Source: Spirochaetia bacterium
GTDB taxonomy: Bacteria; Spirochaetota; Spirochaetia; CADAEX01
Reading direction: 5' to 3'
NCBI GenBank assembly: GCA_045606105.1
Contig: JAZURI010000007.1
Span: 1 to 64,000, forward strand
Length of the DNA: 64,000 bases
The position numbers and the translations under genes are program-made. The notes below the pieces were generated by a model, which had not been told where the DNA came from, made no database searches, and saw nothing but the letters and a program-made list of their open reading frames with translations. Shown in pieces: positions 15,297 to 52,547 of this stretch (its first letter is position 1; each line of letters opens with the position of its first letter).

Positions 15297-16646
15297 TTAT
15301 CTTTCCGCAATCGGTATGTATTTTGCTTCCCCCTTGGTAACAACCCTGTATGCAGGTCTGATAAGCTTGCCTCCGCTGACAAGCTCCTCTATCCTGTGGG
15401 CTGCCCAGCCTGAAATCCTGGCCATGGCAAAGATAGGGGTGTAGAGAGAAATAGGAATATTGAGCATGTTATATACGAAGCCGGAATAGAAGTCCACATT
15501 GATGCACATGGTCTTTCTGCTGCCGGTAACCTCGTTCATGGCCCTGGATGCCAGCTTCTCCACAGCGTTGTAGAGGCCGAATTCCCTGAGCTTGCCTTTT
15601 TCCTCTGCCAGCTCCTTTGCCTTAGTCTTCAGGAGAAGGGCTCTCGGATCCGACTTTGTATAGATGGCATGTCCGTAGCCGTAGATAAGTCCGGCCCTGT
15701 CAAAGGTCTCTTTCCTGAGGATCTTCTTGAGGTATTCCAGAACTTCTGTCTCATCCTCCCAGTCCTTTACGTTTTCCATTATATCAGCCATCATCCTGAT
15801 AACCATGATATTGGCTCCGCCGTGCTTAGGTCCCTTCATTGAACATACCGCAGCCGCAATGGAAGAGTATGTGTCTGTATGGGCAGAGGTTGCCACATGG
15901 TTGATGAAGGTGGAGTTGTTACCTCCTCCGTGCTCTGCATGGAGTATGAGTGCCAGATCCAGTACGCTTACTTCAAGATCTGTGTATGACTTGTCAGGCC
16001 TGATCATCCTGAGGAAGTTTGCCGCTGTTCCGATTCCCGGTGCCGGTGCATGGATGAAAAGGCTTTCCCCGTCGTGATAATGGGTCTTTGCCTGGTATCC
16101 GTGGGCAATCATGGTAGGGAATCTTGCAATGAGCTCGATACACTGTCTGAGAACATTAGGAATTGATACATCATCGGCCTGCGGGTCATAGGAATATGAT
16201 GCAAGCACGCTTCTTGCCAGCTTGTTCATTACATCCCGGCTCGGAGCCTTCAGTATCATGTCCTCCGTAAAGCCTCTCGGAAGAACCCTGTATGTGTCCA
16301 GAAGCTCGTTGAATTCATCCAGCTCCTCCTTTGTCGGGAACTTTCCGAAAAGAAGGAAATAGGTAGTTTCCTCGAAACCCAGTCTTCCTTCGTTAAGTAC
16401 ATTTGAAACTATATCATTGATAAGAACTCCCCTGTAGGTGAGCCTTCCTTCGTCCGGGATAAGGAATCCCTCGTCAAAGATGTAACCATGGGCATTACCG
16501 ATCTGTGAGAGACCTACCACAACTCCGGAGCCGTCTTCGTTCCTGAGACCTCTTTTTGTATTGTAAAGAGTGTAAAGCGACGGATCTATGGTATTTGTGT
16601 TAATGGTAAGATCAGTCATTTTTTCAACATATTTTTCGATGTCCAC
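15297..16646 (-). CDS. gltA: Citrate synthase (canonical active site)
   Basis: AEHGGGNNST, GPKHGGAN, GYGHAIY..SDPRA, NVDFYSG, ARISGWAAH. Confidence 0.9.
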   Translation of the reverse strand: MDIEKYVEKMTDLTINTNTIDPSLYTLYNTKRGLRNEDGSGVVVGLSQIGNAHGYIFDEGFLIPDEGRLTYRGVLINDIVSNVLNEGRLGFEETTYFLLFGKFPTKEELDEFNELLDTYRVLPRGFTEDMILKAPSRDVMNKLARSVLASYSYDPQADDVSIPNVLRQCIELIARFPTMIAHGYQAKTHYHDGESLFIHAPAPGIGTAANFLRMIRPDKSYTDLEVSVLDLALILHAEHGGGNNSTFINHVATSAHTDTYSSIAAAVCSMKGPKHGGANIMVIRMMADIMENVKDWEDETEVLEYLKKILRKETFDRAGLIYGYGHAIYTKSDPRALLLKTKAKELAEEKGKLREFGLYNAVEKLASRAMNEVTGSRKTMCINVDFYSGFVYNMLNIPISLYTPIFAMARISGWAAHRIEELVSGGKLIRPAYRVVTKGEAKYIPIAER

Positions 16647-16704
16647 GTTTCCCCCTGAAAATAGTAATTAATAAAATATACTAAATATCCTATAAATTGG
16701 CAAG

Positions 16705-16741
16705 ATAAACAAATTTTATGTAGTGATAACTAAAGGTTATC
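16705..16741. promoter_or_regulatory. Tandem LysR-type operator boxes
   Basis: ATAAA-CAAAT-TTTAT (16705-16719) and GATAAC-TAAAG-GTTATC (16725-16741, perfect arms), 21 bp apart; T-N11-A core. Confidence 0.7.
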
Positions 16742-16782
16742 AAAGTTATGAAATTAAATATCGAAGTAATATTTTTTCCAAC

Positions 16783-16811
16783 TTGACCTTGAAGCGATAT
16801 TCCATTACATT
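16783..16811 (+). promoter_or_regulatory. sigma70 promoter for the 16885 operon
   Basis: TTGACC-17bp-TACATT; AGGAGG SD before ATG 16885. Confidence 0.55.
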
Positions 16812-16884
16812 TAAACCAAAGAAAAAATTTTGCCTGAAACTTTGTTACGGACGGCGGATTTATAAAATTTAGGAGGAGTAAAGT

Positions 16885-17781
16885 ATGGATCGTAAACCAT
16901 TGATCCAGAGAAAGACTGGTATTTCTTACAAAACAGAAGAAAAAACAGTTTTGCGCGGTTATAACGTATGTGAGCTCGCAGATGCAGGTTACACATTCAT
17001 CGACGCACTGTATATTCTTTTTCAGGGAAGAATTCCTGCAGAAAACGAAAGAGCTATGCTCGACTACGAAGTTGCAGAGTTCCTTGAGCACTCAATGTCA
17101 CCTTCAGCAGCAGCTGCTATCGGTGTAATCAACGGACATCCAATGCTCCCAGCAGCAGTTGGAGCATCAATCATGACATTCGGTGGAGCACACGGACCTG
17201 GAGCTCAGCACGGATACATGATGAAGAAATATCTTGACAGAGCTTGCGACGAACACAAGACTGTTAAAGAAGTTGCTATCGAATGTGTAAACGAATACAT
17301 GGATGCAGGTAGAGCAGTTATGGGTATGGGACAGCCACAGCACCTCGACGGTGACCCAAGAGCAGAACCTACTCACCTCAAGCAGGAAGAACTCGGAGCA
17401 TGCGGTGTATACCTTGAGTTCCAGAGAGCTCTCGAAGCTAAATTCTATGAAAGAAGATTTGCTGAAGGCAGATCATATGTTGCAGTAAACATGGTTGGAG
17501 CTGGTAACACAGCACTTTCCGACATGGGATTCTCACCAAACGCAGCTTGGACAATCGGTTGTGTAACAAGAGGTTACAGCTGTTCTTGCCACGCCCTCTT
17601 CACATTGAAGAAAGGTAGAGCTTGGGGTGCTTCCAGAAACGAACCTATGGTACAGATGCTTGACCTTTCAATGATCAAATACATCGGACCAGAAGACAGA
17701 GAAGTTCCACTTCAGTCAGAAAGAGAAGAATATGCTATGAACGAACTTAAGACAGGAGAATTTAAGAAATGGGTGATTTAA
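16885..17781 (+). CDS. Citrate-synthase/citryl-CoA-lyase-fold protein, subunit A (non-canonical active site)
   Basis: TGIS....LRGY, EHSMSPS, FGGAHGPG, GMGQ..DPRA, VNMVG; CCL-like length. Confidence 0.75.
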   Translation: MDRKPLIQRKTGISYKTEEKTVLRGYNVCELADAGYTFIDALYILFQGRIPAENERAMLDYEVAEFLEHSMSPSAAAAIGVINGHPMLPAAVGASIMTFGGAHGPGAQHGYMMKKYLDRACDEHKTVKEVAIECVNEYMDAGRAVMGMGQPQHLDGDPRAEPTHLKQEELGACGVYLEFQRALEAKFYERRFAEGRSYVAVNMVGAGNTALSDMGFSPNAAWTIGCVTRGYSCSCHALFTLKKGRAWGASRNEPMVQMLDLSMIKYIGPEDREVPLQSEREEYAMNELKTGEFKKWVI

Positions 17782-18884
17782 CAAACGTTGCTGTTAATAG
17801 AATGACAGGAAAAGTTTGCGATGAAAGAATCGCACAGATGAAACATTCTAAGAGAAGACCAATCGGTAACCTTGCAAATCCTAGTTTGCTTTTCGATTAC
17901 ACAAACAGAGAGATTGGAACACTTCCAGATGACAACAGAGCACACTTCCAGTGGGTTTCTGAAGTTGCATACAAAAACATTCACAGAATCGTAACAAGAG
18001 GTTACGATACAACAGAGCTCGTAGAAGCTGGTTATGGAGTTTGTGATGTACTCTTCATCGACTTCCAGGCTAGAATTCCACTCGTTGAAGAAAGAAAAGT
18101 TCTTGACTACATCCTCGTATGCGGTCTCGAAGATGGTCTTTCCAACCCAGCTCTTATCGCAAGACTCGTAACCAGAGGTAAATCATACCTTACACAGGCT
18201 TGTGGTTCATCAGTACTTGCTTTCGGACAGGCTTACGGTGCTTTCCAGGCATTCGGAAAAATGCTCGAAAAATACTATGCTAAGATTGCTGAAGAAGGTA
18301 TCACAGCTGAAGAAGCTGCAGCACTTTGTGTTGAAGAATGCTATGCTGAAGATCACTTCGGAATCAACGAATTCTACGTAAAAGACGAAACACCTAAGCA
18401 CCTTCTCGCTTACGCTGAAGCACAGCTCGCTGGAAAGAAGGAAGTTAAGTACATTCCTTTCCTCAAGCTCGTTGTTGCTGCTGCTCAGAAGAAGCTCGGA
18501 TATGTTGAAGCTGAACTCATGGCTGCTATGTGTGCTGCATTCATGGACCTCGACTTCACACCAGACGCTGCATGGTGTATCATGGGTGTTACAAGAGCAT
18601 TCTCAGCTGGTGCTCACGCTTGTGAAGAGCTCGAAAGAGAATGTCAGGTTACAGGATTTGACTCATACGGAAAGACACTCACACCAAAAGAATGGTATGA
18701 TGGTCCATGCGACAAGCCAGTTCCTCCAATTTCCGAAAGAGGAAACTTCAAGGGCGGACAGGCTCAGACACCAGAAGAGTGGAGAGCTAGCTGGCAGAGA
18801 AAAGCTAAAGAGCTTACAGGTTCCGGTTTCGCTATTGACTTCGTTCTTGACGATGCAAGAAAGGTTGTTCACGGAAAAAAATAA
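17769..18884 (+). CDS. Citrate-synthase/citryl-CoA-lyase-fold protein, subunit B (degenerate catalytic motifs)
   Basis: SEVAY..IVTRGY, EDGLSNP, FGQAYGA, DLDFTPDAAW..VTRA..AHACEE; 13-nt overlap with subunit A and its own GGAG SD. Confidence 0.65.
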   Translation: MGDLTNVAVNRMTGKVCDERIAQMKHSKRRPIGNLANPSLLFDYTNREIGTLPDDNRAHFQWVSEVAYKNIHRIVTRGYDTTELVEAGYGVCDVLFIDFQARIPLVEERKVLDYILVCGLEDGLSNPALIARLVTRGKSYLTQACGSSVLAFGQAYGAFQAFGKMLEKYYAKIAEEGITAEEAAALCVEECYAEDHFGINEFYVKDETPKHLLAYAEAQLAGKKEVKYIPFLKLVVAAAQKKLGYVEAELMAAMCAAFMDLDFTPDAAWCIMGVTRAFSAGAHACEELERECQVTGFDSYGKTLTPKEWYDGPCDKPVPPISERGNFKGGQAQTPEEWRASWQRKAKELTGSGFAIDFVLDDARKVVHGKK

Positions 18885-18914
18885 TTCTGGCTTAACTGCT
18901 TAGAATAATTTTTC

Positions 18915-18960
18915 ACCCCTGTCTGTATGGCAGGGGTATATTCACGTAGAGACTCTACGT
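18915..18960 (+). repeat. Two intergenic hairpins (mRNA stability/processing element)
   Basis: ACCCCTGTC-5-GGCAGGGGT and ACGTAGA-GAC-TCTACGT, no T-tail. Confidence 0.5.
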
Positions 18961-18987
18961 AAAAATCTATTATAGGAGATGATAAAA

Positions 18988-20424
18988 ATGGCAGATATTT
19001 CTATCCAGGAAATGTATGAACGCGGAAGAAAAGCTTTCGAGTGGATTGAATTCAAGACACAGGAAGAAGTTGATGAAATCGTAGCAATCGTTGGTTGGCA
19101 GTACATGCAGAAAGAGGTTGCTGAAGAAGGTTCAAAACTTGCTTACGAAGGCTCCGGAATGGGTGTTCAGAAGGACAAATACGGAAAAGCTGGAAAGGTA
19201 AGAGGTATCCTCTGGGATATGAAAGGTGCAAAGACATGTGGTATCATCGCTGAAGATCACGTAAGAGGAATCACAACATGGGCAAAACCAATGGGTGTTG
19301 TTGCTAACGTATGTCCTTGTACAAACCCTTGTATCACAGCTGCTTTCATCGGTCTTACACTTCTTAAGACAAGAAACGCAATGATCTGTTCACCACACCC
19401 AAGAACAAAGCTTGCTACAGTTAACGCTATCCAGTGGGGTAGAAAAGCTCTCAAGGCTATCGGTGCTCCTGAAGACCTCTTCCAGTGTATCGAAGAACCT
19501 TCCAACGAAAAGACAGTTGAACTCATGTCAAAGTGTGACTTCGCTGTAGCTACAGGTGGAAAGGCTCTTATCAAAGTTGTACACATGGCTGGTACACCAT
19601 CTGTAACAGTAGGTGCTGGTAACGTAAGAGCAATCATCGACCCATCAGCTGACCTCAAGAAGGCTGCTATGTGTGTTGCTGCTTCCAAGACATACGACAA
19701 CGCTACATCATGTTCATCTGAAAACGCTGTATCTATCCATGTAAGCGTATACGACGAAATGATCAAATACCTCGAAGAAGAGGGTGGATACCTCCTCGGA
19801 GACGAAGACAGAGAAAAACTCAGAGCTGCTATGTGGCCTGATGGACATACACTCAACAGAGACATCGTTGCTAAGCCAGTTCAGACAATTGCTGACATCG
19901 CCGGAATCAAGGTTCCTGAAGGAACAAGATTCATCATGGTTAAGGGACAGAAGATTGGTCCGGAAGACATGTTCTCAAACGAAAAGCTTTCTCTTATCCT
20001 CACAGTATGGACATGGGAAGATTTCGAAACAGAAATTGCTACACTCAAGAAGAACCTTTACTTCTCAGGTGTTGGTCACTCATGTGCTCTCCACTCAACA
20101 AAACCAGAACAGTGGTACAGACTTGCTGAGTACATCCCTACAGGCCGTGTAAACATCAACATGCCTAACACAGTTGTAAACAGCGGTAGCTGGTTCGCAG
20201 GACAGGAATTCACAACAACAATCGGTTGTGGTACATGGACAGGAAACAGCCACTCTGACAACATCAACTTCAGACACTTCATCAACACAACAAGAATGGC
20301 AGTTCCAAGAGCTTGGTATGTTGCTTCTGATGACGAAGTTTGGGGAAAACACCTTGCTAAGGCTAAGGCTCTTATTGGTGACAACAGAGTTGAAATGCCA
20401 CACAAACCAAAATATCTTGATTGA
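18988..20424 (+). CDS. CoA-acylating aldehyde dehydrogenase, SauS (sulfoacetaldehyde dehydrogenase)-like
   Basis: KPMGVV..PCTNP, SPHPR, ATGG, GAGN, KTYDNATSCSSEN (catalytic Cys), EKLS, GHS, GCGTW; start moved to ATG 18988 for SD spacing. Confidence 0.85.
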   Translation: MADISIQEMYERGRKAFEWIEFKTQEEVDEIVAIVGWQYMQKEVAEEGSKLAYEGSGMGVQKDKYGKAGKVRGILWDMKGAKTCGIIAEDHVRGITTWAKPMGVVANVCPCTNPCITAAFIGLTLLKTRNAMICSPHPRTKLATVNAIQWGRKALKAIGAPEDLFQCIEEPSNEKTVELMSKCDFAVATGGKALIKVVHMAGTPSVTVGAGNVRAIIDPSADLKKAAMCVAASKTYDNATSCSSENAVSIHVSVYDEMIKYLEEEGGYLLGDEDREKLRAAMWPDGHTLNRDIVAKPVQTIADIAGIKVPEGTRFIMVKGQKIGPEDMFSNEKLSLILTVWTWEDFETEIATLKKNLYFSGVGHSCALHSTKPEQWYRLAEYIPTGRVNINMPNTVVNSGSWFAGQEFTTTIGCGTWTGNSHSDNINFRHFINTTRMAVPRAWYVASDDEVWGKHLAKAKALIGDNRVEMPHKPKYLD

Positions 20425-20441
20425 TTTTAATCAATATTTTG

Positions 20442-20469
20442 AAGGCTCCTTTCGGGGAGCCTTTTTTTT
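20442..20469 (+). terminator. Intrinsic terminator
   Basis: AAGGCTCCT-TTCG-GGGAGCCTT followed by a T-run. Confidence 0.85.
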
Positions 20470-20491
20470 ACTTTACTTATAAGGAATAAAC

Positions 20492-21193
20492 ATGATAAAA
20501 GCATTGATTTTTGATTTCGTGCAGACTCTGGGAGATGCTGCCAGCGGATATAAGGACGGAGAAAAGAATTCTCAGAATAAGCTGATAGAAAAATTCGGTA
20601 TTACAGATACAGAAAAGTTTCTTGAAGATTATCGTGCAGTCAGAAAAAAGCATTTTCTTGCAGCCGATTTTTCACGCAGGAATCAGTGGCTTGAACTTCA
20701 GGAAATCTACGGTGTGGATGCCGGAGAGGAATTCCTCGACAATCTTGAAAATGAATACTGGGCATTTGTTATCAATGCCATGAAGCTTTTCCCTGAAGTT
20801 GAAGAGGTTCTTGTTTCCTTAGGAAAGAAGTATAAGCTGGGAATGATCTGCAATTCACAGGTTGACGGTGCATCAAGGGCACTCCAGAGTCCTGAATTCG
20901 GAAGAGCACAGAAGTTCTTCGACCATTGTATCCTGTCCGGAGAAAACGGTGTTCCTGCAAAGCCATCTCCTGTTCCTTTCAACATGATGCTTGAAGCACT
21001 GGATGTAAAGCCGGAGGAGGCAATCTTTATCGGCGATGACTACCGTGTGGATATCGAAGGGGCCACAGGGGCAGGTATCTCTCCTGTATGGCTGAAGCAC
21101 TATTCCGTAAAGAGAAACTGGCCGGAAAACACAATGAATGTACCTGAAATCACAGACCTGAGACAGGTTGCAGAGCTGGACATTCTGAAATAA
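20492..21193 (+). CDS. HAD superfamily (subfamily IA) hydrolase with atypical motif I
   Basis: LIFDFVQTL, ICNS, AKPSP, IGDDYRVDIEGA. Confidence 0.85.
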   Translation: MIKALIFDFVQTLGDAASGYKDGEKNSQNKLIEKFGITDTEKFLEDYRAVRKKHFLAADFSRRNQWLELQEIYGVDAGEEFLDNLENEYWAFVINAMKLFPEVEEVLVSLGKKYKLGMICNSQVDGASRALQSPEFGRAQKFFDHCILSGENGVPAKPSPVPFNMMLEALDVKPEEAIFIGDDYRVDIEGATGAGISPVWLKHYSVKRNWPENTMNVPEITDLRQVAELDILK

Positions 21194-21212
21194 ATATAGA
21201 ATAAAATGGCTC

Positions 21213-21254
21213 TTGACTATAACTAAAGTAGGATGTATCATAAAATTCAGTTAT
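21213..21254 (+). promoter_or_regulatory. LysR gene promoter overlapped by two putative autoregulatory boxes
   Basis: TTGACT(21213)-17bp-TATCAT(21236); half-match ATAAC-TAAAG (21219) and ATAAA-ATTCA-GTTAT (21240-21254), 21 bp apart. Confidence 0.65.
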
Positions 21255-22167
21255 GAATTTATATCATCTGAAAACATTTTACTTTACAGCAAAGTACAAG
21301 AGCCTTACAAAAGCTGCCGAATATCTGTGCATAACCCAGCCTGCGGTTACCAAGCAGATCAAGCAGCTGCAGAGTCACTACAACCTCAAGTTTCTCGATA
21401 TCATCGGGAAAAAAGTCATTCTTACCGATGCAGGGCTGAATCTTTTCACCATAGCAGAAAAAATCTTTGACATGGAATCCCAGGCTGAAGAGGCTATAAA
21501 GGATTTCCAGGAATACAACAAGGGAAAAATAAGTATCCTGGCTTCCGAAAGCTTCGGCTCGTACCATATTCCGTACATTGTCAGCCAGTTCCGGAACACA
21601 AGGCCTGAAATCAGCATTTCCATCCAGACAGCCACAAACAAGTATATAATAGAAAGCATTTCCGAGCTGAAGGAGGATATCGGCTTTATTTCCGCCCCGG
21701 TTCTCAACCCAAAGATATCGGTTCATGAGGTCATGGAGGATGATATAGTTCTGGTTGCAAGCCCGCGGTGTCATTTTTCCAATGTCAAGGAGCTGGACCC
21801 GGCCGATCTTGCCGGCAAGGATATCATAGTCCATGAGCAGGGGTCCGTGGTAAGGAAGGTGGTGGATGCCTATCTCAAAAGAAACCACATCAACACCGGG
21901 GTAAAGTACGAAATTTCCAACAATGAGGCAATAAAGAAGCTGCTTCGTAAAAATATGGGAGTTGCTTTCCTGACAAAAAGCGTTATCCATGAGGAGCTGG
22001 AAAGAGGCTCTCTTATGGCAGTTCCTGTTCCTGACAGGAATTTCAAAAGAAAATATTACATGATATATCACAGTGAAAAATATTTTTCCAAACCTCTTGC
22101 CGATTTCAGGGATCTGCTTCTGAGGTGGCCTGAAATTTTTCCTACATTATTCGGCAGACAGGTATGA
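21253..22167 (+). CDS. LysR family transcriptional regulator (CysL/CmpR-like)
   Basis: LKTF...SLTKAAEYLCITQPAVTKQIKQL..LTDAG; PBP2 domain with E.GS..R. Confidence 0.93.
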   Translation: MNLYHLKTFYFTAKYKSLTKAAEYLCITQPAVTKQIKQLQSHYNLKFLDIIGKKVILTDAGLNLFTIAEKIFDMESQAEEAIKDFQEYNKGKISILASESFGSYHIPYIVSQFRNTRPEISISIQTATNKYIIESISELKEDIGFISAPVLNPKISVHEVMEDDIVLVASPRCHFSNVKELDPADLAGKDIIVHEQGSVVRKVVDAYLKRNHINTGVKYEISNNEAIKKLLRKNMGVAFLTKSVIHEELERGSLMAVPVPDRNFKRKYYMIYHSEKYFSKPLADFRDLLLRWPEIFPTLFGRQV

Positions 22168-22937
22168 AAATTAAAGAACTGATTGATGACATTCTTGAGG
22201 CAGGCGATTTCGCTTACTGTGCCCAGGAGAAGGTAACAAGGGGACTGAAATCTGACGGTTCGGTCATAACAGAGGTGGATCTGGAAATCAACAGCAGGAT
22301 CAGCCGGAGAATCAGGGAGCTTTATCCCGAAGCCAATCTCATAACTGAGGAGGCTGACAGCAGCTACGATCCTTCAAGGGAATATACCTTTGTTCTGGAC
22401 CCGCTGGACGGTACCGATGTTTACAGCCAGGGGATGCCGGGCTGGTGTGTGGCCCTGGGACTGTTACGGAATCTGAAGCCGGTGGCAGGAATCATCTATG
22501 CTCCGGCCTGGGGACCGAAATACGGGAATCTCCTTTATACCGAAGAGGGTGGTGCGGTCTATCACAACGGCATGAAATACGATATTGAAAAGAAGGAATC
22601 GGATTCCATGCATATCCTTATTCCATCCTCCATTCACAAGGAGTATGATTATTCTTCCTTTTCGGGAAAAATCAGGAATACAGGTTCATCTATAATATCC
22701 CTTTCCGGTCTGCTGCTGCACCAGTCGGTAACAGGGGTTATCATCAACCGGGGCTATATCTGGGATATGGCAGCGGCCGATGCAATAATAAGAAAATTCG
22801 GATTCATGCCGGAATATCTTTCCGGTGAAAAAATAGATTATTCAGAAATAACGGACAGAAACAGACAGAAGGATTACGTAGTCTGCGGGTATTCAGCTGC
22901 AGTTTCGGAAATCCGTAAAAATTTTATAAGGAAGTAA
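22164..22937 (+). CDS. Inositol monophosphatase / CysQ (FIG) family phosphatase
   Basis: VITEVD, ITEE, LDPLDGT, IWDMAAA. Confidence 0.88.
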   Translation: MKIKELIDDILEAGDFAYCAQEKVTRGLKSDGSVITEVDLEINSRISRRIRELYPEANLITEEADSSYDPSREYTFVLDPLDGTDVYSQGMPGWCVALGLLRNLKPVAGIIYAPAWGPKYGNLLYTEEGGAVYHNGMKYDIEKKESDSMHILIPSSIHKEYDYSSFSGKIRNTGSSIISLSGLLLHQSVTGVIINRGYIWDMAAADAIIRKFGFMPEYLSGEKIDYSEITDRNRQKDYVVCGYSAAVSEIRKNFIRK

Positions 22938-22938
22938 T

Positions 22939-23418
22939 ATGGCAGAATGTTGCTGCAAAAAGAAAAATCTGCAGGAAGCAGAAGAGATTGTGGCACTGAT
23001 CGGGGGTGCTAAGGAGAGGATTATTCCGCTGCTCCAGGAAATTCAGAAACGAAAGGGATATCTTCAGGAGGAGCTGATAAATGATGTGGCGCAGGTTACA
23101 GGAATCAAGGCTGCTGAATTTTTCAGTGTAGGAACTTTTTATTCACAGTTCCGGTTTACTCCGTTGGGAAAAAACATAATCAAGCTCTGCAAGGGAACAG
23201 CCTGCTTTGTGGCAGGGGCCGATTCTCTCATCGATACGGCTGAAAGCTGTCTCGGAATAAAAAGCGGAGAAACCACACCGGACGGAAAATTTACGCTGGA
23301 AACAGTATCATGTCTGGGCTGCTGCTCGCTGGCTCCGGTGGCTATGATCAATGACAAGGTCTACGGCAAGGTAACCAGGTCAAGACTGGCTGAGCTTATC
23401 AAGGAGTGCGGAGAATGA
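22939..23418 (+). CDS. NuoE/HydC-like [2Fe-2S] subunit
   Basis: TFYSQF, CKGTAC, SCLGCCSLAP. Confidence 0.92.
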   Translation: MAECCCKKKNLQEAEEIVALIGGAKERIIPLLQEIQKRKGYLQEELINDVAQVTGIKAAEFFSVGTFYSQFRFTPLGKNIIKLCKGTACFVAGADSLIDTAESCLGIKSGETTPDGKFTLETVSCLGCCSLAPVAMINDKVYGKVTRSRLAELIKECGE

Positions 23419-25142
23419 AAAAGGAAATAAAGGTAGGTCTCGGCTCCTGCGGTATCGCATCGGGAGCTCAGGAGGTTTACGATTATCTGGAAAAGGAGCT
23501 GGCCGGTTCCGGTATCAGCCTGAAGAAAACCTCATGTATAGGTATCTGTTTCCAGGAGCCTATAGTCGAATATGTTTCCGACAATGAGCACATTTCCTAT
23601 GGAAAGGTGGATGTGAAATTTGCCGGAGAGCTTCTGGCCGGAATCCGCAGCGGTGAACTGCCGGCTTCAAACAGGATTTTCGATGATCCGGGGACAAAGG
23701 ATTTCGTGGGGCCTCAGGTAAAGGTAGCCCTGAAAAACTGCGGAAAGATAGATCCTGAAAACATAGATGAATATATTGAATGCGGCGGTTATGAGGGGTA
23801 CAGGAAGGCCCTGGAGATGACCGGCGACGAAATAATAGATCTTCTCAAGGAATCGGGACTGAAGGGAAGGGGCGGTGCCGGCTTCCTTACCGGTCAGAAA
23901 TGGTTTTTTCTGAAGAATGCCAAGGGTGATAAGAAATACCTTGTCTGCAATGCCGATGAGGGCGATCCGGGTGCATTCATGGACAGAGCCATCCTGGAGG
24001 GAGATCCCCACAGCCTTATCGAGGGAATGCTCATCGGCTCTCTGGCTACAGGGGCGGATGAAGGCTATGTTTACTGCCGTGCGGAGTATCCGCTGGCCCT
24101 GAAAAGGCTGAAGCTTGCCATTCAGGCTGCAGAATCAAGGGGCTTTCTCGGAAAGAATTTTACCCTTCATGTAAAGGAGGGGGCCGGAGCCTTTGTCTGC
24201 GGAGAAGAAACTGCCCTTATTGCCTCTATCGAGGGAAAGCGCGGTATGCCTAACATCAGGCCCCCTTTTCCGGCCGAATCGGGTGTAAAGGGAAAGCCTA
24301 CCAACATAAACAATGTGGAAACCTATGCCAATGTACCTCGTATTCTCTGCGACGGTGCGGAATCCTTCAATAAATACTGCTGCGGAAACAGCTACGGAAC
24401 CAAGGTCTTTGCCCTGGCCGGAAAAGTAAAGAGGGTAGGTCTGGTGGAGGTTCCTATGGGACTTACCATAAGACAGATCGTGGAAGAAATAGGGGGAGGC
24501 TCCTCCACAGGGCTTCCACTGAAGGCGGTACAGATGGGCGGTCCTGCAGGGGGCTGTATTCCCGAAGCCTTGTTTGATACCCCTATTGACTACGCCTCCA
24601 TCGGTGCCACCGGTGCCATCATGGGTTCCGGCGGTATGATAGTCATGGACAGCTCCTCCTGCATGGTGGATGTGGCAAAGTATTTCCTGCAGTTTACCCA
24701 GGCGGAATCCTGCGGAAAGTGTACCTTCTGCCGTATCGGAACCAAGAGGATGATGGAGATTCTTGAAAGAATAACCGAAGGAAAGGGTTGTATGGAGGAT
24801 CTTGAGCTTCTGGAGGAGCTTTCGGAGCTTGTAGGAAAAACTTCTCTCTGCGGTCTGGGTCAGCTGGCCCCAAATCCGGTCAAGACCACACTCCGTTATT
24901 TCAGGGACGAGTATATTGCCCACATTGAAGAGAAGAAATGTCCTGCCGGTGTATGCAGATCCCTTATCACCCTTGATATTGACAAGGAAAAATGTATCGG
25001 ATGCGGTGCCTGCCGCAAGGTCTGCCCGGTTGAGGCCATTTCCGGTGAGATAAAGAAGAGCCATGCCATTGATGCCGGAAAGTGTATCCGCTGCAAGGTA
25101 TGTGTTGAAAAATGCCGGTTCGATGCCATAAGGATTTCCTGA
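23415..25142 (+). CDS. NuoF/HydB-like FMN/NADH-binding subunit with N-terminal [2Fe-2S] and C-terminal 2x[4Fe-4S]
   Basis: GRGGAGF, NADEGDPGAFMDR, AFVCGEETAL, SCGKCTFCRIG, CIGCGACRKVCP; ATGA overlap. Confidence 0.93.
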   Translation: MKKEIKVGLGSCGIASGAQEVYDYLEKELAGSGISLKKTSCIGICFQEPIVEYVSDNEHISYGKVDVKFAGELLAGIRSGELPASNRIFDDPGTKDFVGPQVKVALKNCGKIDPENIDEYIECGGYEGYRKALEMTGDEIIDLLKESGLKGRGGAGFLTGQKWFFLKNAKGDKKYLVCNADEGDPGAFMDRAILEGDPHSLIEGMLIGSLATGADEGYVYCRAEYPLALKRLKLAIQAAESRGFLGKNFTLHVKEGAGAFVCGEETALIASIEGKRGMPNIRPPFPAESGVKGKPTNINNVETYANVPRILCDGAESFNKYCCGNSYGTKVFALAGKVKRVGLVEVPMGLTIRQIVEEIGGGSSTGLPLKAVQMGGPAGGCIPEALFDTPIDYASIGATGAIMGSGGMIVMDSSSCMVDVAKYFLQFTQAESCGKCTFCRIGTKRMMEILERITEGKGCMEDLELLEELSELVGKTSLCGLGQLAPNPVKTTLRYFRDEYIAHIEEKKCPAGVCRSLITLDIDKEKCIGCGACRKVCPVEAISGEIKKSHAIDAGKCIRCKVCVEKCRFDAIRIS

Positions 25143-25143
25143 T

Positions 25144-27195
25144 ATGAGTGATGTTAGACTTAAGATAAATGATATGGATGTAACAGTTCCTGAGGGAACA
25201 ACCATCCTTGAAGCAGCCGTGAAATGCGGCTTTGATATTCCGACCTTTTGCAATGCCAAGGGACTTCATCCTTTTACAAGCTGCTTTGTATGTGCGGTAA
25301 AGATAGAGGGAGGAAAGGGAAACCTGGTTCCTTCCTGTGCCACAAAGGTAAGGGAAGGGATGGTTGTCACTGTTGAAGGGGGCGAGGTTGACAGAGCCAG
25401 AAAAATGTGTATCAATCTTCTGGTTTCGGACCACTGCGGAGACTGTATGCCGCCTTGCCAGTCCACCTGTCCGGCCGAAATTCCTATCCGGGATTTCATG
25501 GAGCTGGTAGCAGAGGGAAAAGAGGCTGAGGCTGCGGTGAAGATCAGGGAAAAGACCCCTTTTGCAGGTGTCCTGGGAAGAATATGTCCCCGTCCGTGCG
25601 AAACCGAATGCCGCAGGAACAGGGTGGATGAACCTATGGCTATATGCCAGATGAAAAGATATATCGCCGACTGCGAGAAAAAGGAGCACGGAGGGCCTCA
25701 GCTTCCTGAGCCTGCTCCTGCTACCGGAAAGAAGGTGGCAATTATCGGGGCCGGACCCGCAGGTATGGCTGCAGCTTATTATCTGCTGCTGGCAGGTCAT
25801 GCCGTTACGGTATTCGAGGCCCACGGTAAATCGGGCGGTATGCTCCGTTACGGAATTCCGTTCTACAGACTTCCTGACCATATCCTGGCCGGAGAATTCG
25901 ATGCTGTTGAAAAGCTCGGTGCAGAGGTCCGCTACAACACCGTCATCGGAAAGGATATCCCGATCAAGGAGCTTGAAAGGGATTATGATGCACTTCTCAT
26001 TGCCACCGGTGCCCAGGGCTCATCCTCAATGAGGATAGAGGGAGAGGAGCTTCCGGGTGTATATTCCGGAATCGAGATTCTCAGACGGGTTGCCGAGGGT
26101 GAAAAGGTTGATCTTGGCAGGAAGACCATTATCATCGGCGGCGGAAACACAGCCATTGATGCGGCAAGAACAGCGGTGCGCCTCGGTTCTGAGGCCATAA
26201 TCCTCTATCGCCGTTCAAGGGCGGAAATGCCGGCCAGCAGCTTCGAAATCGACGAGGCTCTGGAGGAGGGTGTTCAGATTGCATATCTCAACGCACCGCT
26301 GGCAGTACGCAGCTCCGGAAACGGACTTGTTCTTTCCTGTACCGGAATGGAGCTTGGGGAGCCGGACAGTTCCGGCAGACGGGGAACCAGCCCTGTAAAA
26401 GGTTCGGAATATGAGCTTGAATGCAGCTCCGTGATTGCAGCCATCGGACAGAGAGTAATAACTGGTTATCTTGATGACCTGGGTGTGGAAATAACCAAAA
26501 GGGGAACCATCAGGGTAAATCCTGAAACATTGATGACTACCCGTCCCGGTATTTTTGCTGCCGGAGACTGTCAGTCAGGTGCCGATATTGCGGTAAGGGC
26601 AGCAGCTGCCGGCCGAAAGGCAGCATACTCTGTCAATCAGTACCTGGCAGGAGAAAAGGTTACGGGAGAGCCTGTTCTTTTCAACTCCTCCATGGGAAGC
26701 CTTGATGAGGTTCCGGCAGAGCTCTTTGAAGGAAAGGAAAAGGCAGCCCGTGTGAAGATGCCTGTACTTGACAGGGAAACCAGGGAGAGCAGCTTTGATG
26801 AAATCGAAACCGGTTTTTCAGAGGCTGATGCCAGGGCTGAAGCTGAAAGATGTCTCAGATGCGGCTGTGACAAGGCCCATGACTGCAGGCTCAGGGATTA
26901 TGCAACCCGGTACGGTGCCGATGCCCATCTCTTTCAGGGGGAAAGGAGAGGCTACAGCCGCGACGAATCCCACGAGGATATCAGGCTGGAAACAGGAAAA
27001 TGTATCAGCTGCGGCTCCTGCGTAAGGGCCTGTGCAGAGATAAAGGGTCTTACCGTTCTTTCGTTTGACGGCCGCGGATTCAGGACCAGGATGCGTGCCC
27101 CATTCGGTCATTCGCTGGTGGATACCCGCTGTGACGGCTGCGGAGAGTGTGTAAAGGTTTGTCCTACCGGCGCCATGATGCTGAAGAAGGGCTGA
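25144..27195 (+). CDS. [2Fe-2S]-GltD/NfnL-like FAD/NADPH oxidoreductase with C-terminal Fe-S clusters (StnC/NsoC-like)
   Basis: IPTFC..CFVC..SC, PCQSTCP, GRICPRPCE..C, GAGPAG, GGGNTAIDAAR, YRR, CLRCGC..C, CISCGSCVRAC, CDGCGECVKVCP; no H-cluster or Mo domain. Confidence 0.85.
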   Translation: MSDVRLKINDMDVTVPEGTTILEAAVKCGFDIPTFCNAKGLHPFTSCFVCAVKIEGGKGNLVPSCATKVREGMVVTVEGGEVDRARKMCINLLVSDHCGDCMPPCQSTCPAEIPIRDFMELVAEGKEAEAAVKIREKTPFAGVLGRICPRPCETECRRNRVDEPMAICQMKRYIADCEKKEHGGPQLPEPAPATGKKVAIIGAGPAGMAAAYYLLLAGHAVTVFEAHGKSGGMLRYGIPFYRLPDHILAGEFDAVEKLGAEVRYNTVIGKDIPIKELERDYDALLIATGAQGSSSMRIEGEELPGVYSGIEILRRVAEGEKVDLGRKTIIIGGGNTAIDAARTAVRLGSEAIILYRRSRAEMPASSFEIDEALEEGVQIAYLNAPLAVRSSGNGLVLSCTGMELGEPDSSGRRGTSPVKGSEYELECSSVIAAIGQRVITGYLDDLGVEITKRGTIRVNPETLMTTRPGIFAAGDCQSGADIAVRAAAAGRKAAYSVNQYLAGEKVTGEPVLFNSSMGSLDEVPAELFEGKEKAARVKMPVLDRETRESSFDEIETGFSEADARAEAERCLRCGCDKAHDCRLRDYATRYGADAHLFQGERRGYSRDESHEDIRLETGKCISCGSCVRACAEIKGLTVLSFDGRGFRTRMRAPFGHSLVDTRCDGCGECVKVCPTGAMMLKKG

Positions 27196-49207: not shown

Positions 49208-50419
49208 ATGATGAAAAAAAGATGTGTTCTTACTACACTGCTTTTAATCGTTGTTCTGCTCGCAAGCTGTGGTGGAAATTCTGCACCAGCAGCAGCTGAA
49301 GCTGCACCTGCAGCAGCAGCCGCTCCGGTTGAAACATTCAACTGGAAGATGGTTTCATGTTGGTCACCACAGTATCACCTTGGAGACCAGGACCGTGAAT
49401 TCATGGTTCGTCTTGATGCTCTCGTTGGCGATCAGATGAAAGTTGACTACTTCGTAGAAAACGCACTCGTAGGACCAAAAGAGGTTTTCGATGCAGTTAA
49501 AGACGACGTTGCTCAGTTTGGTTCCGACTATCCAGGATACTGGGCCGGAAAAGACACAGCATTCAACCTGCTCTCTTCATGGCCAATGTGGATGGATGCA
49601 TATGACTACATTAACTGGATCTACTACGATCCAAGTTTCGCTGGTCGTATGAACGACGAAATCGCAAAACCAGGTAACAGCGTTGGACAGGGTATGAAAG
49701 AGTACAAGAGAGTATACGGAAACTTCGGAATCGAAGCATTCCCATTCGGACCTATCACAATCGAATCTGGTCCTAGAGGTACAAAGCCTATCAAAGGTCT
49801 TGCTGACTACAAAGGACTCAAAATCAGAATGTCTGGTTCATCACAGGGACAGATCCTGAAGAAACTCGATGCAGCTCAGGTTGGTATCCAGAGCTCAGAA
49901 GTTTATCAGGCTATGCAGACCGGTGTTATCGATGCAGCTGAATCTTGTACACCTTACCTCGACTGGGGTCTCGGATACAACGAAATCACAAAGTACTCAT
50001 CACACCCAGGTTGGCACCAGCCAGGTTCTATGTGTTCTCTTCTCGTAAACAAGGCTAAATATGATGCTCTCCCACAGAACATCAAGTCAGCTATCGAAAT
50101 TGCAGCTCAGGCAACAGCTCTGCAGACACTCGCAATGGAAGACAGAACATCAGGTATCTACACAAACAAATTCAAGAGCGAAGTTGGCGTACAGTCATTC
50201 AAGCTTCCTGAAGCAGACCTCAAGATTCTTGCTGGTTACAGTGTAGAAATTATGTACGAATTTGCTGCAAAGAACCCTTCTTTCGCACAGACAGCTTACT
50301 CAATGGCTTCTTATATGCATGAGTATCAGGCTTGGAGACAGCTCAATGACATCTACGGTCATGGATGGGCAGATCTTCCACTTCCTGACCTTGCTAAGCT
50401 GAAAAGCTACATCAAATAA
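49208..50419 (+). CDS. dctP: TRAP transporter substrate-binding lipoprotein (DctP/TakP-like)
   Basis: Lipobox LASC with Ala/Pro linker; WKMVSCW, YWAGK, GLKIRMSG, MQTGVIDAAE, PGWHQPG. Confidence 0.9.
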   Translation: MMKKRCVLTTLLLIVVLLASCGGNSAPAAAEAAPAAAAAPVETFNWKMVSCWSPQYHLGDQDREFMVRLDALVGDQMKVDYFVENALVGPKEVFDAVKDDVAQFGSDYPGYWAGKDTAFNLLSSWPMWMDAYDYINWIYYDPSFAGRMNDEIAKPGNSVGQGMKEYKRVYGNFGIEAFPFGPITIESGPRGTKPIKGLADYKGLKIRMSGSSQGQILKKLDAAQVGIQSSEVYQAMQTGVIDAAESCTPYLDWGLGYNEITKYSSHPGWHQPGSMCSLLVNKAKYDALPQNIKSAIEIAAQATALQTLAMEDRTSGIYTNKFKSEVGVQSFKLPEADLKILAGYSVEIMYEFAAKNPSFAQTAYSMASYMHEYQAWRQLNDIYGHGWADLPLPDLAKLKSYIK

Positions 50420-50444
50420 GATTGCTTTTTGACGGAAGTTTCCG

Positions 50445-50524
50445 TAAAGTCTGTCGGGTAACCGGCAGACTTTATCAGGAGGCGCAAGCGGGCATCGGGC
50501 TAAAGCCTAATGCCCTTACTTTTT
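50445..50524 (+). terminator. Double hairpin / partial terminator between dctP and dctQ
   Basis: TAAAGTCTGTCGG-4-CCGGCAGACTTTA; GGGCATCGGGC-4-GCCTAATGCCC followed by TTACTTTTT. Confidence 0.65.
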
Positions 50525-50652
50525 GTAAAAAAAGAGCTTGTGTTTATTGGTTTGGAAACTATTAATTCTTGGTAAAATAATTTTCGAAAATCATTTAGAT
50601 TTTCTTGCGAATAAAATAAATAGAGCTATTTATTTAGGAGAAATATTTTAAA

Positions 50653-51183
50653 ATGAGAAATTTGGCGCATAAGTACTGTTTTCTTGCCGACACTCTCAGT
50701 GACTGGGTAGGAAAAACATGTATGTGGTCTGCGGCAATTGGTATGCTTATCATGATTTACGAAGTATTCACAAGATACGTATTCCACATGGCTAATGACT
50801 GGGTTTTTGAAACCACAATTATGATTTATGCTTTCCATTTCTGTATGTGTGCTTCTTATGCACTCAAAAATGGTGCGCATGTTGCTATTGACATCATTTC
50901 CGGAAGATGCAGCCTCAGAACACAGGCTATCCTGGATATGATTTCATACATTATCTTTTTCTTTCCTTCTGTTGGTGTTGTATTCTTCAGAGGAATCAAG
51001 TTCGCAGCTGACTCATGGAGGATCAAAGAGGTTTCATGGTCAGAGTTCCCTGCACCTATCTATCTTCAGAAGACTATCATTCCTGTAATGTCAGGTCTTC
51101 TCCTTATTCAGGGTCTTGCTATCTTCATCAGAAGAATTGAACAGGCAATTGACGGTGACAACTACAAAAAGGAGGCAAAATAA
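50653..51183 (+). CDS. dctQ: TRAP transporter small permease
   Basis: YEVFTRYVF..W..E, HVAIDI, 4 TM helices. Confidence 0.9.
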   Translation: MRNLAHKYCFLADTLSDWVGKTCMWSAAIGMLIMIYEVFTRYVFHMANDWVFETTIMIYAFHFCMCASYALKNGAHVAIDIISGRCSLRTQAILDMISYIIFFFPSVGVVFFRGIKFAADSWRIKEVSWSEFPAPIYLQKTIIPVMSGLLLIQGLAIFIRRIEQAIDGDNYKKEAK

Positions 51184-52547
51184 TGGGATTTGAAGGTTTT
51201 GTAATGACTCCTGGGTTCGTAGCCGTTGCTATGTTCATAGGTCTTTTGGCTGGTCTTTTCCTTGGCCACCCACTTGCATTCGTTCTTGGTGGACTTGCTG
51301 TTATTTTCGGTTTCTTCAGCCAGAAATATCACGTGGCATTCCCATCACTTATGATGAATAAATTCAATGCGCAGATGTCCAACTACACCTATGTAGCCAT
51401 CCTATTCTTTATATTCATGGCGAACTTTATGGGTGAGTCGGGTATGGCGGACGGTCTCTTCAAGTCTGTACAGTATCTGTTCGGACCGGTAAGAGGTGGT
51501 ATTGCAGTTGCAGTAATCGTAGTATCTACACTCCTTGCTGCATGTACAGGTACAACTGGTGCTTCCTGTGTAACAATGGGTGTACTCGCTCTTCCTGTAA
51601 TGAAAGCTAACCATTACTCAATGAAGCTTTCCTGTGGTGCTATTGCCGGTTCATCTGCTCTTGGTATTCTTATCCCGCCTAGTATCATGCTCCTCGTACT
51701 TGCTGAGCTTTCAGGTTGTACAGTAGGACAGCTCTTCGCAGGTTCTATCCTTCCTGGTATTCTCCTTGCTGTAATGTATATCATCTACGCAGTTTACCAG
51801 TGCTGGAGACACCCTTGGAAAGGTCCTGCTCTTCCTCTCGAAGTAAGAAGACAGGTTACAAGAGGTCAGCTTGCAAAAATGCTCATTATCAACCTCTGTC
51901 CTCCTCTTCTCCTTATCGGTGCCGTACTTGGTGTACTCTTCACAGGTGTTGCTACACCTACTGAAGCATCTGCTACAGGTGCTTTCTGTGCACTCGGTCT
52001 TTACATCGGTTACGGAAGATTCTCATGGAAGGGTCTTGTAAAGATCATGGAAGACACAGCTAACACAGTATCTATGGTACTTATCGTTATGACAGGTGCC
52101 GGATTCTTCACAGCTATCTTCATGGGTCTTGGTGGTGGAGACGTTATCCAGGGTATGATCCTTGGTTGCGGTCTCGGAAAATGGGGTACATATGCCGTAA
52201 TGATGCTTATCTGCTTCTTCCTCGGTATGTTCCTCGACTGGACAGCTATCGTTATGATTACTCTTCCAATCTACCTCCCAATCGCAGACCAGATGGGAAT
52301 GGACAGACTTTGGTTCGTAGTATCTATCGCAGTAATGCTCCAGGACTCTTTCTGTACACCTCCGTTCGGATACAACCTGTTCTACCTGAAAGGTATTGCT
52401 CCGGAAGGTGTTACTACAGAAGATATCTATCTTGGTACTATTCCATATTGGGCAATCATGGAGTTGGGACTCGTTCTCTGCTGTGTATTCCCACAGCTCG
52501 TTACTTGGCTCCCAAGCGTTGCAGTTAAATTGCCTAACGCACAGTAA
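51183..52547 (+). CDS. dctM: TRAP transporter large permease
   Basis: GHPLAF, LGILIPPSI, ATPTEA, LGMFLDW, TPPFGYNLFYLKG. Confidence 0.93.
   Translation: MGFEGFVMTPGFVAVAMFIGLLAGLFLGHPLAFVLGGLAVIFGFFSQKYHVAFPSLMMNKFNAQMSNYTYVAILFFIFMANFMGESGMADGLFKSVQYLFGPVRGGIAVAVIVVSTLLAACTGTTGASCVTMGVLALPVMKANHYSMKLSCGAIAGSSALGILIPPSIMLLVLAELSGCTVGQLFAGSILPGILLAVMYIIYAVYQCWRHPWKGPALPLEVRRQVTRGQLAKMLIINLCPPLLLIGAVLGVLFTGVATPTEASATGAFCALGLYIGYGRFSWKGLVKIMEDTANTVSMVLIVMTGAGFFTAIFMGLGGGDVIQGMILGCGLGKWGTYAVMMLICFFLGMFLDWTAIVMITLPIYLPIADQMGMDRLWFVVSIAVMLQDSFCTPPFGYNLFYLKGIAPEGVTTEDIYLGTIPYWAIMELGLVLCCVFPQLVTWLPSVAVKLPNAQ

Follow-up and report, generated by a model that had tools for sequence, protein, structure and literature searches.

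A conserved pair of citryl-CoA-lyase-like proteins associated with phosphonate catabolism genes and proposed to act on phosphonoacetyl-CoA

To our knowledge only a handful of enzymes break carbon-phosphorus (C-P) bonds, namely PhnX, PhnA, phosphonopyruvate hydrolase, the PhnZ-type oxygenases and C-P lyase. PhnA belongs to the alkaline-phosphatase superfamily, and the cap domain of PhnX carries a lysine that forms a Schiff base. In the cleavage of citryl-coenzyme A (citryl-CoA), the reaction of citryl-CoA lyase (Ccl), the enolate of acetyl-CoA is the leaving group and is stabilised by the first catalytic histidine, and the catalytic aspartate returns the proton. Here we describe a pair of overlapping genes, A and B, in a 64,000-nucleotide stretch of DNA (the window: positions 1 to 64,000 of contig JAZURI010000007.1, assembly GCA_045606105.1) from a bacterium of the class Spirochaetia (GTDB lineage Bacteria; Spirochaetota; Spirochaetia; CADAEX01). 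The pair encodes two diverged, citryl-CoA-lyase-like proteins and stands upstream of genes for a CoA-acylating aldehyde dehydrogenase (ALDH) and a hydrolase of the HAD superfamily (HAD), which together we call the cassette. We hold it highly probable that the pair takes part in phosphonate catabolism and favour, with less assurance, a reading in which the A/B heterodimer is the C-P hydrolase for phosphonoacetyl-CoA in a CoA-dependent route from phosphonoacetaldehyde.

We could not find a description of such a route for phosphonates, and our literature search returned no paper in which either a citrate-synthase-like protein or phosphonoacetyl-CoA is connected with the breakdown of phosphonates. 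Phosphonoacetyl-CoA figures as a predicted, unobserved product in a biosynthetic study (preprint 10.64898/2026.01.15.699783), and the 'citrate synthase-like' reaction mentioned in PMC8942020 is that of FrbC in biosynthesis. Two surveys of recurrent genes in aminoethylphosphonate clusters (PMC12366243, PMC10590968) do not use the words 'citrate', 'citryl' or 'acylating' in their main text.

Subunit A (16885-17781, forward strand; 298 residues; proposed catalytic half) opens with an ATG preceded by taggaggag, and subunit B (17769-18884, forward strand; 371 residues; proposed structural partner) with an ATG inside the end of A, the two frames sharing 13 nucleotides (17769-17781) and an AGGAG lying 8-9 nucleotides 5' of the B start. 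A first-pass annotation of the window, made from the sequence alone, had described overlapping frames with a separate Shine-Dalgarno sequence for B and had quoted motifs for A, B and the neighbouring citrate synthase; both frames, the overlap and the AGGAG were found again, and every quoted motif is present in the translations. Among 74 A-family genes (two at contig ends excluded), 73 carry an overlapping start 13 nucleotides before the A stop codon, ATG in 66 and GTG in 7, the lone exception being a second, divergent copy in locus L030. Because this start lies within G-E-Y/F-K-K-W, the conserved C-terminus of A, and the GGAG is supplied by the same codons, conservation of the overlap is partly imposed by the protein sequence of A. 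The two proteins are paralogous (profile-to-profile hhalign probability 100%, 32% identity), B having about 55 additional residues at its N-terminus and about 40 at its C-terminus.

The motifs of A are EHS, AHGPG, GMGQ, DPR and NMVG; those of B are EDG and AYGAF, with GH and DPR both absent. The canonical citrate synthase on the opposite strand (15297-16646, reverse strand; 666 bits on NF010635, cut-off 426) has EHG, KHGGA, GYGH, DPR and NVD. Against PF00285 (gathering score 27) A reaches 44.7 bits, over residues 68-243 only, and B, at 19.3 bits, remains under threshold. Neither protein belongs to the citryl-CoA lyases as defined by six NCBIfam models (NF004864-NF004869), on which the best scores are 120.4 bits for A (NF004869) and 67.3 for B, with a cut-off of 212. 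The solved protein closest to A is the citryl-CoA lyase 6hxp (E 6.7e-18), and residues were mapped through the alignment to 6hxp together with an A-B profile alignment; hhalign comparison with a six-sequence citrate synthase profile gave probabilities of 16.9% for A and 1.6% for B, in alignments unreliable beyond the NV motif.

In this mapping H103 of A aligns with the first catalytic histidine of 6hxp and is present in every one of 27 sequences; Q150, in GMGQ, replaces the second catalytic histidine and is likewise invariant in the A family; R159 aligns with the DPR arginine; and V204, in a column that is not conserved in the family, aligns with the catalytic aspartate. The first histidine, the second (GxGH) histidine and the aspartate (NVD) are what we take to be His274, His320 and Asp375 in pig citrate synthase numbering. 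One of the three catalytic residues is retained in A, none in B. At the four mapped positions B presents an invariant Y156, no equivalent of GxGH, no DPR arginine, and L251, two positions before which stands a D or E; of the mapped residues only a later arginine (A R229, B R276) is common to both proteins. H69, H103, H153, R159 and R229 of A are all invariant across the 27-sequence alignment. The first-pass annotation had held that both proteins lack canonical catalytic residues, and the alignment bears this out, placing neither an aspartate nor a histidine at the second-histidine or aspartate site of A; among homologues, Q150 of A and Y156 of B do not vary, and the V204 column does.

Joint structure prediction supports the binding of A and B as a heterodimer, which the earlier annotation had proposed and which also agrees with the residue mapping, the invariable pairing of the genes and the conserved overlapping start. 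The predicted A+B complex scored 0.84, against 0.00 for the best of three controls; at least 91% of contacts are common to the three runs, and the confidence (predicted local distance difference test, pLDDT) of the partner is at least 87. Of 80 solved complexes 58 attain this mark, as do 2 of 110 mismatched pairs; these calibration counts apply approximately, the prediction having been made from alignments of our own.

Eighty loci were fetched from species-representative genomes, and the cassette was found to be dispersed among Spirochaetia, Desulfobacterales, Syntrophales, Planctomycetota, Anaerolineae, Verrucomicrobiota and Gammaproteobacteria, among others. Wherever the sequence runs on for at least 1.1 kb beyond A (73 loci), B follows it, a pairing far beyond chance. 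Where at least 4.3 kb is available, the CoA-acylating ALDH lies on the same strand downstream of B in 58 of 59 loci; only L058 departs from this, a second copy in a metagenome-assembled genome (MAG) in which L040 is also found. Of the 53 loci that reach at least 6.5 kb, 43 contain HAD. A, of constant length (298 residues) and about 70% identical across phyla, is the most conserved cassette protein, HAD reaching about 40%. It is also isolated: among 1.84 billion representatives clustered at 50% identity, 417 match it at E<=0.001, and a threshold of E<=1e-30 leaves just 22, mostly fragments of the A family. No fused form was found at E<=1e-20 among proteins of 523-2000 residues, which is weak evidence. 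For one 306-residue relative, 42% identical to A (P0123), no locus was located in genome or metagenome contigs. A third, divergent A-like gene (L030:9096-9944; 31% identical to A) stands solitary downstream of the cassette in L030, beside a NudE-like Nudix hydrolase.

Open reading frames (ORFs) of the 80 loci were grouped with BLAST by single linkage, requiring a minimum of 25% identity across 60% of the length, and one representative of each of 33 neighbour clusters was scored against curated models. At least one phosphonate-labelled neighbour occurs in 45 of the 80 loci. Representatives passed their cut-offs for PhnW-AepZ (22 loci, often between B and ALDH; 419 bits, cut-off 360.8), PbfA (11 loci; 715, cut-off 525), phnS2 (7 loci; 451, cut-off 392.75), PhnU2 (7 loci; 713, cut-off 593), PhnC (15 loci; 318, cut-off 266), PhnE (6 loci; 256, cut-off 217) and PhnA or PhnA-like proteins (9 loci; 527, cut-off 407.55, in a cluster that also includes sub-threshold relatives). 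Below the cut-off were PhnD (6 loci; equivalog model), phn_DUF6 (8 loci) and an alcohol dehydrogenase resembling HpnZ (10 loci; 296, cut-off 328).

Whole genomes extend this association. Among 50 genomes carrying the cassette, PhnW exceeds its cut-off in 40 and PhnX in none (best match 118 bits). Ten carriers have PhnW under cut-off, and in four of these (G009, G011, G014, G041) an HpnZ-like dehydrogenase follows directly after the cassette (L021, L023, L026, L066). We also sampled 121 genomes, each at least 90% complete, from the class to which the window belongs: 7 carry A, 17 a PhnW over its cut-off and 5 PhnX; A accompanies PhnW in 5 of 7 genomes and PhnX in 0 of 7, PhnX accompanies PhnW in 4 of 5, and 8 genomes have PhnW with neither. 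Since the numbers are small and five of the A carriers are of one genus, we read this pattern as an indication and not as a statistical test.

A second gene arrangement bears most directly on the substrate. A search with a 285-residue relative about 31% identical to A (P0148) yielded 24 further loci (L092-L115; for example L095:5202-9316) in Armatimonadota, Bacillota, Rokubacteria, Actinomycetes and others, each with a single Ccl-like gene. Of the 19 loci with sufficient flank, 18 have genes for CoA-transferase subunits A and B (PF01144, 86.6 and 85.7 bits) directly upstream of it; in 12 loci a classical NAD aldehyde dehydrogenase (PF00171, 528 bits) adjoins. Around these genes are found PbfA-like genes (11 loci), PhnC (7), phnS2 (5), PhnW (5) and PhnU2 (3). 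None of the 24 loci holds the cassette HAD, an acylating ALDH, PhnA or a PhnX-like gene; none of the 24 corresponding genomes has PhnA, and none has a PhnX over its cut-off, one PhnX match reaching 155 bits. The single Ccl-like proteins retain both catalytic histidines and the arginine residues, and have proline or valine in place of the catalytic aspartate (18 of 18). In three actinomycete loci (L111, L113, L115) an aldehyde dehydrogenase lies directly upstream of CoA-transferase A, in an open frame of about 728 residues (L115:2815-5001) that is possibly a fusion.

In the second architecture, phosphonoacetaldehyde would be oxidised to phosphonoacetate by the classical NAD aldehyde dehydrogenase, the CoA-transferase would form phosphonoacetyl-CoA with acetyl-CoA as donor, and the Ccl-like protein would then yield acetyl-CoA and phosphate, regenerating the donor. 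Two different thioester-forming routes thus each adjoin an Asp-less Ccl-like protein, and this is the strongest argument for phosphonoacetyl-CoA as the substrate; both architectures point to it as the only substrate of the Ccl-like protein with which they make sense. Phosphonoacetyl-CoA had been listed among several candidate substrates by the first-pass annotation, and it is this genomic context that singles it out; the accompanying claim, that the pair performs chemistry other than citrate synthesis or cleavage, is supported by the residues, the family scores and the phosphonate gene context. That A/B and the single Asp-less Ccl-like proteins constitute a new class of C-P-cleaving enzyme, hydrolysing phosphonoacetyl-CoA in an active site of the citrate synthase fold, we regard as an evenly balanced proposition.

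From gene anatomy, residue mapping, conservation, genomic association and the absence of known C-P hydrolases we infer substrates, a reaction and residue roles as follows. PhnW, encoded elsewhere in the genome, would make phosphonoacetaldehyde from 2-aminoethylphosphonate, and an HpnZ-like dehydrogenase would probably also supply it, from a hydroxy-phosphonate. The CoA-acylating ALDH would convert phosphonoacetaldehyde to phosphonoacetyl-CoA, and A/B would hydrolyse its C-P bond to give acetyl-CoA and phosphate. Water would attack the phosphorus, which takes the place of the carbonyl carbon of oxaloacetate, and the thioester enolate would leave, stabilised by the retained H103 of A as in citrate synthase. 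The phosphonate would occupy the usual oxaloacetate site, formed by H69, H153, R159 and R229 of A; these residues and H103 are those expected to hold the anionic group and the thioester oxygen. The catalytic aspartate, which removes or returns the methyl proton in citrate synthase, would be dispensable and is absent, and the residue lost in A would sit beside the phosphonate. B would be a catalytically dead paralogue that completes the dimer, and HAD an accessory protein.

The genome to which the window belongs (1.46 Mb, 99% complete) is consistent with this scheme. It encodes a PhnW (383 bits; contig C1:178060-179133 of G000, locus L087:10016-11179), and searches of it revealed no PhnX, PhnA, PhnJ or phosphoenolpyruvate (PEP) mutase, PhnZ and phosphonopyruvate hydrolase (PalA) not being among the families sought; from the absence of PEP mutase in the search it follows that this PhnW is not biosynthetic. 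Beside this PhnW are a divergently transcribed binding protein of the TAXI family of tripartite ATP-independent periplasmic (TRAP) transporters and a fused TRAP permease, which may be an aminoethylphosphonate importer of a type outside the named ones. In the window itself, a Zn-dependent alcohol dehydrogenase of the HpnZ type (52634-53734, forward strand; TIGR03366, 335.7 bits, cut-off 328.1) shares 50-56% identity with the dehydrogenases that immediately follow the cassette in L021, L023, L026 and L066, and probably makes phosphonoacetaldehyde from a hydroxy-phosphonate. Immediately before it on the same strand is a TRAP transporter (49208-52547), comprising DctP (49208-50419, PF03480), an ORF of DctQ size (50653-51183) and DctM (51183-52547, PF06808), the last 35-37% identical to TRAP permeases beside the cassette in Syntrophales loci. 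This transporter, 30 kb downstream of the cassette, is probably the system that takes up the hydroxy-phosphonate feeding the pathway, a link drawn by inference. A Cache/PAS histidine kinase (53784-56084) follows the dehydrogenase.

The codon adaptation of A, B and ALDH is high. When 52 ORFs were ranked by codon adaptation index, with the window's L1, L10, L11, NusG and RpoB genes as reference, the HpnZ-like dehydrogenase came first (0.821), ALDH third, B fourth, A seventh, the TRAP genes eighth to eleventh (0.74-0.75) and HAD fifteenth. This fits the strong codon bias reported at first pass for the pair; of the further claim, that the proteins are abundant, what stands is indirect support from this codon adaptation and from occurrence in RNA libraries. 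RNA-library contigs from two studies align with the region at 95-100% identity, and in runs X1 (3554 nt, 16848-20401) and X2 (3486 nt, 16848-20330) a single contig bridges A, B and ALDH; such contigs attest presence in RNA libraries that may include DNA, and do not permit strand, transcript or level to be inferred. The HAD region is uncovered at 20414-20887 in all four RNA runs and entirely so in X1, X2 and X5, a gap that proves nothing.

The ALDH (18979-20424, forward strand; 481 residues), our proposed acylating phosphonoacetaldehyde dehydrogenase, scores best among NCBIfam models on SauS (NF047625, 444.4 bits, under the cut-off of 600), then on the AdhE N-domain (364) and acetaldehyde dehydrogenase (302). 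Its closest solved structure is an acylating succinate-semialdehyde dehydrogenase (SucD; 8cei, 310 bits), ahead of AdhE (267) and acetaldehyde dehydrogenase (236). Because SauS and SucD score above acetaldehyde dehydrogenases, ALDH resembles enzymes for small anionic aldehydes. A cysteine-containing motif is conserved among 56 sequences of the cassette ALDH family, and our own mapping assigns its cysteine as the putative catalytic one.

The remaining cassette protein, HAD (20492-21193, forward strand; 233 residues), is a rival for the role that we assign to A/B. It might itself be what hydrolyses the C-P bond, as a phosphonatase of a new kind with phosphonoacetaldehyde or phosphonoacetyl-CoA for substrate, with A/B left to regulation, thioester handling or proofreading. 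Its frequency in the loci favours this, as does its motif I, F-D-F-[G/V]-Q-T-L, in which the nucleophile aspartate is invariant and the general acid two positions beyond (Asp+2) is missing in 33 of 34 family members; a true phosphonatase likewise lacks the Asp+2 residue. Three arginines of the cap (R48, R51, R62), invariant in the 34 members, would suit an anionic substrate. The cap nevertheless has no invariant lysine for a Schiff base, and in the search of the window's genome HAD gave no match to the PhnX model TIGR01422 (cut-off 220) at E<=0.001, the best match elsewhere being 29.6 bits; its closest solved relative, PH0459, is of unknown function. On these sequence features HAD is judged not to be a PhnX-type phosphonatase, and, from what is known of HAD mechanisms, it is probably not an ordinary phosphomonoesterase. 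HAD is also absent from 10 of the 53 loci of the first type with enough flank, and a search of five such genomes recovered an orthologue in two (60-65% identity) and none in three, these being MAGs of unknown completeness; it is absent as well from all 24 loci of the second architecture. It is less conserved than A, its codon adaptation is lower, and a strong terminator-like hairpin parts it from A, B and ALDH (20441-20474, forward strand; a hairpin at 20441-20464 with a 10-bp stem and five G-C pairs, followed by a T run, from a consensus scan). We consider it unlikely that HAD is the hydrolase. Nor do we find much to recommend a direct cleavage of phosphonoacetaldehyde by A/B, without CoA, through polarisation of the aldehyde carbonyl, with ALDH turning the resulting acetaldehyde into acetyl-CoA. 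The net chemistry would equal that of PhnX followed by acetaldehyde dehydrogenase, and the ALDH family does include acetaldehyde dehydrogenases, as the AdhE score indicates; this idea is nonetheless a poor fit to the higher SauS and SucD scores, and the CoA-transferase pair and non-acylating aldehyde dehydrogenase of the second architecture would serve no purpose if the Ccl-like protein did not require a CoA thioester. The characterised relatives of the citrate synthase fold, as far as is generally known, all act on acyl-CoA.

We judge two further possibilities improbable. In one, A/B would be a thioesterase for phosphonoacetyl-CoA, performing the hydrolase half-reaction of citrate synthase, and PhnA would cleave the phosphonoacetate. 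PhnA or PhnA-like genes do adjoin the cassette in 9 of 80 loci, but only 3 of the 50 carriers have PhnA over its cut-off (11 with the relatives of 170-220 bits counted); it is missing from the 24 genomes of the second type and was not found in the window's own, nearly complete genome, and a thioesterase after an acylating dehydrogenase would waste the thioester. In the other, the cassette would act on the sulfonate analogue, sulfoacetaldehyde being converted to sulfoacetyl-CoA and A/B cleaving its C-S bond. SauS is indeed the best NCBIfam model for ALDH, and TRAP transporters and alcohol dehydrogenases also belong to isethionate pathways; yet the SauS score is under the cut-off, all specific neighbours that pass curated cut-offs are phosphonate genes, and no sulfite reductase, Xsc or glycyl-radical sulfonate lyase is among the scored representatives of the 33 neighbour clusters. 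Enolate-type cleavage of the C-S bond would, moreover, presumably yield sulfate, which no known enzyme does. Least credible of all is the idea that the pair serves central metabolism as a normal citryl-CoA lyase or an additional citrate synthase, which we rejected on catalytic residues and scores. The fold family agrees with it, and a canonical citrate synthase adjoins the cassette, divergently oriented, in 17 of the 80 loci, an arrangement that may be coincidental or may reflect a functional connection by way of acetyl-CoA; but that neighbour is restricted to Spirochaete loci, both proteins fall far below all citryl-CoA lyase cut-offs, A lacks two of three catalytic residues and B all three, and no citryl-CoA synthetase is among the scored neighbour-cluster representatives, the genome not having been searched with the family model.

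Several observations weigh against hydrolysis of phosphonoacetyl-CoA by A/B. Phosphonoacetyl-CoA is not known as a catabolic intermediate, and neither the proton donor for the enolate nor the base that activates water is assignable from our data. The AlphaFold2 model of the A monomer, from a 27-row alignment, is poor (mean pLDDT 56.8), and the favourable complex prediction may mirror likeness to solved citrate synthase and Ccl homodimers. HAD is frequent and has no explained role in the scheme, and could itself be a C-P hydrolase, given its phosphonatase-like lack of Asp+2; the best model of ALDH is a sulfonate enzyme, judged by sequence score. PhnW of the window's genome is on another contig than the cassette. 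No phosphonate-labelled neighbour was seen in 35 of the 80 loci, 15 of which are close Spirochaete relatives (L001-L015) and many others short contigs. The 50 carrier genomes were hand-picked from loci with longer flanks and include many incomplete MAGs and related genomes; 8 of them have a sub-threshold PhnX-like hydrolase (105-118 bits on TIGR01422), and, beyond the three with PhnA over cut-off, 8 more have PhnA-like proteins of 170-220 bits, so that other C-P hydrolases may be present in these carriers. A representative of the PhnX-like proteins (cluster c61, L040:2844-3593) reaches 170 bits on TIGR03351, 'phosphonatase-like hydrolase' (cut-off 218.9); in some carriers such a hydrolase lies near PhnW, HpnZ or PhnA and could be a divergent phosphonatase acting in parallel.

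Other features surround the cassette. A weak promoter-like site precedes A (16783-16811, forward strand; TTGACC-17-TACATT, 9 of 12 matches in a consensus scan), and the region between B and ALDH (18885-18978) holds two short inverted repeats, recognised by eye at about 18925-18947 and 18947-18966, both crossed by the RNA-library contigs. Rfam found nothing above gathering score over 16500-21400, with a sub-threshold Phe_leader match on the terminator hairpin. Downstream of HAD is a LysR-family regulator (21253-22167, forward strand) that scores 163.5 bits on the aminoethylphosphonate-associated LysR model TIGR03339 (cut-off 341.1), and whose cluster is represented in 25 of the 80 loci. It is followed, here and in seven close relatives, by a gene of the inositol-monophosphatase family (22164-22937; cluster c15). 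Three ORFs at 22939-27195, whose translations by eye resemble NuoE-like, NuoF-like and hydrogenase subunits of a multimeric [FeFe] hydrogenase, could dispose of NADH from the pathway. In some Spirochaete and Desulfobacterales loci (L009, L013, L014, L015) the cassette is accompanied, downstream of LysR, by a gene for PhoU_div (DUF47) and one for a Pit/sulfate-permease-like transporter, which would fit export or handling of released phosphate.

If the proposed reaction is correct, a thioester-dependent hydrolase on the citrate synthase fold adds a new mechanism of C-P cleavage, in which an old active site is reused: enolate stabilisation is kept, the catalytic base is discarded and a dead paralogue is retained as partner. 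It would explain how many anaerobes of sediment, gut and rumen that are without known C-P hydrolases use the commonest natural phosphonate, and would allow strict anaerobes to go beyond phosphorus scavenging and ferment 2-aminoethylphosphonate and related phosphonates with a gain of ATP, the acetyl-CoA product letting phosphonates serve as a source of carbon and energy under anoxia. Because the pathway genes show codon usage like that of ribosomal protein genes, it could be a main energy pathway of this small-genome rumen spirochaete, fed by phosphonolipids of rumen ciliates. Phosphonate turnover in metagenomes would also be read differently, the A and B genes being currently annotated 'citrate synthase' or 'hypothetical'.

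With Ccl (6hxp) and the citrate synthase module of ATP-citrate lyase, A shares the fold family, similar size, the first histidine, the DPR arginine and the later arginine, and this likeness suggests that the substrate of A/B is probably an acyl-CoA split into acetyl-CoA and an anion; Ccl, however, is a homomer of the reductive tricarboxylic acid cycle that cleaves a C-C bond, whereas A/B would be a heteromer of two paralogues, set in a phosphonate context, for which we propose C-P cleavage. To citrate synthase (PF00285) A is distantly homologous, and the same use of an enolate-stabilising histidine is proposed, but A and B, at about 300 residues, are without its N-terminal part, lack the catalytic aspartate and are not expected to carry out condensation. 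The cassette ALDH has its best family and structure matches in SauS and SucD, which are CoA-acylating enzymes for small anionic aldehydes, and stands in a phosphonate context rather than one of sulfonate or succinate. PhnX with acetaldehyde dehydrogenase starts from the same input, phosphonoacetaldehyde from PhnW, and arrives at the same end products, acetyl-CoA, phosphate and NADH; free acetaldehyde is formed on that route and would not be on ours. Closest in logic are PhnY and PhnA, which likewise oxidise phosphonoacetaldehyde first and then cleave the C-P bond of a beta-carbonyl phosphonate, and whose net reaction the second architecture would equal. PhnA is of another superfamily and is missing from 47 of the 50 carriers; the oxidation step gives a free acid on that route and would give a CoA thioester in the cassette, whose final product, acetyl-CoA, would keep the thioester energy.

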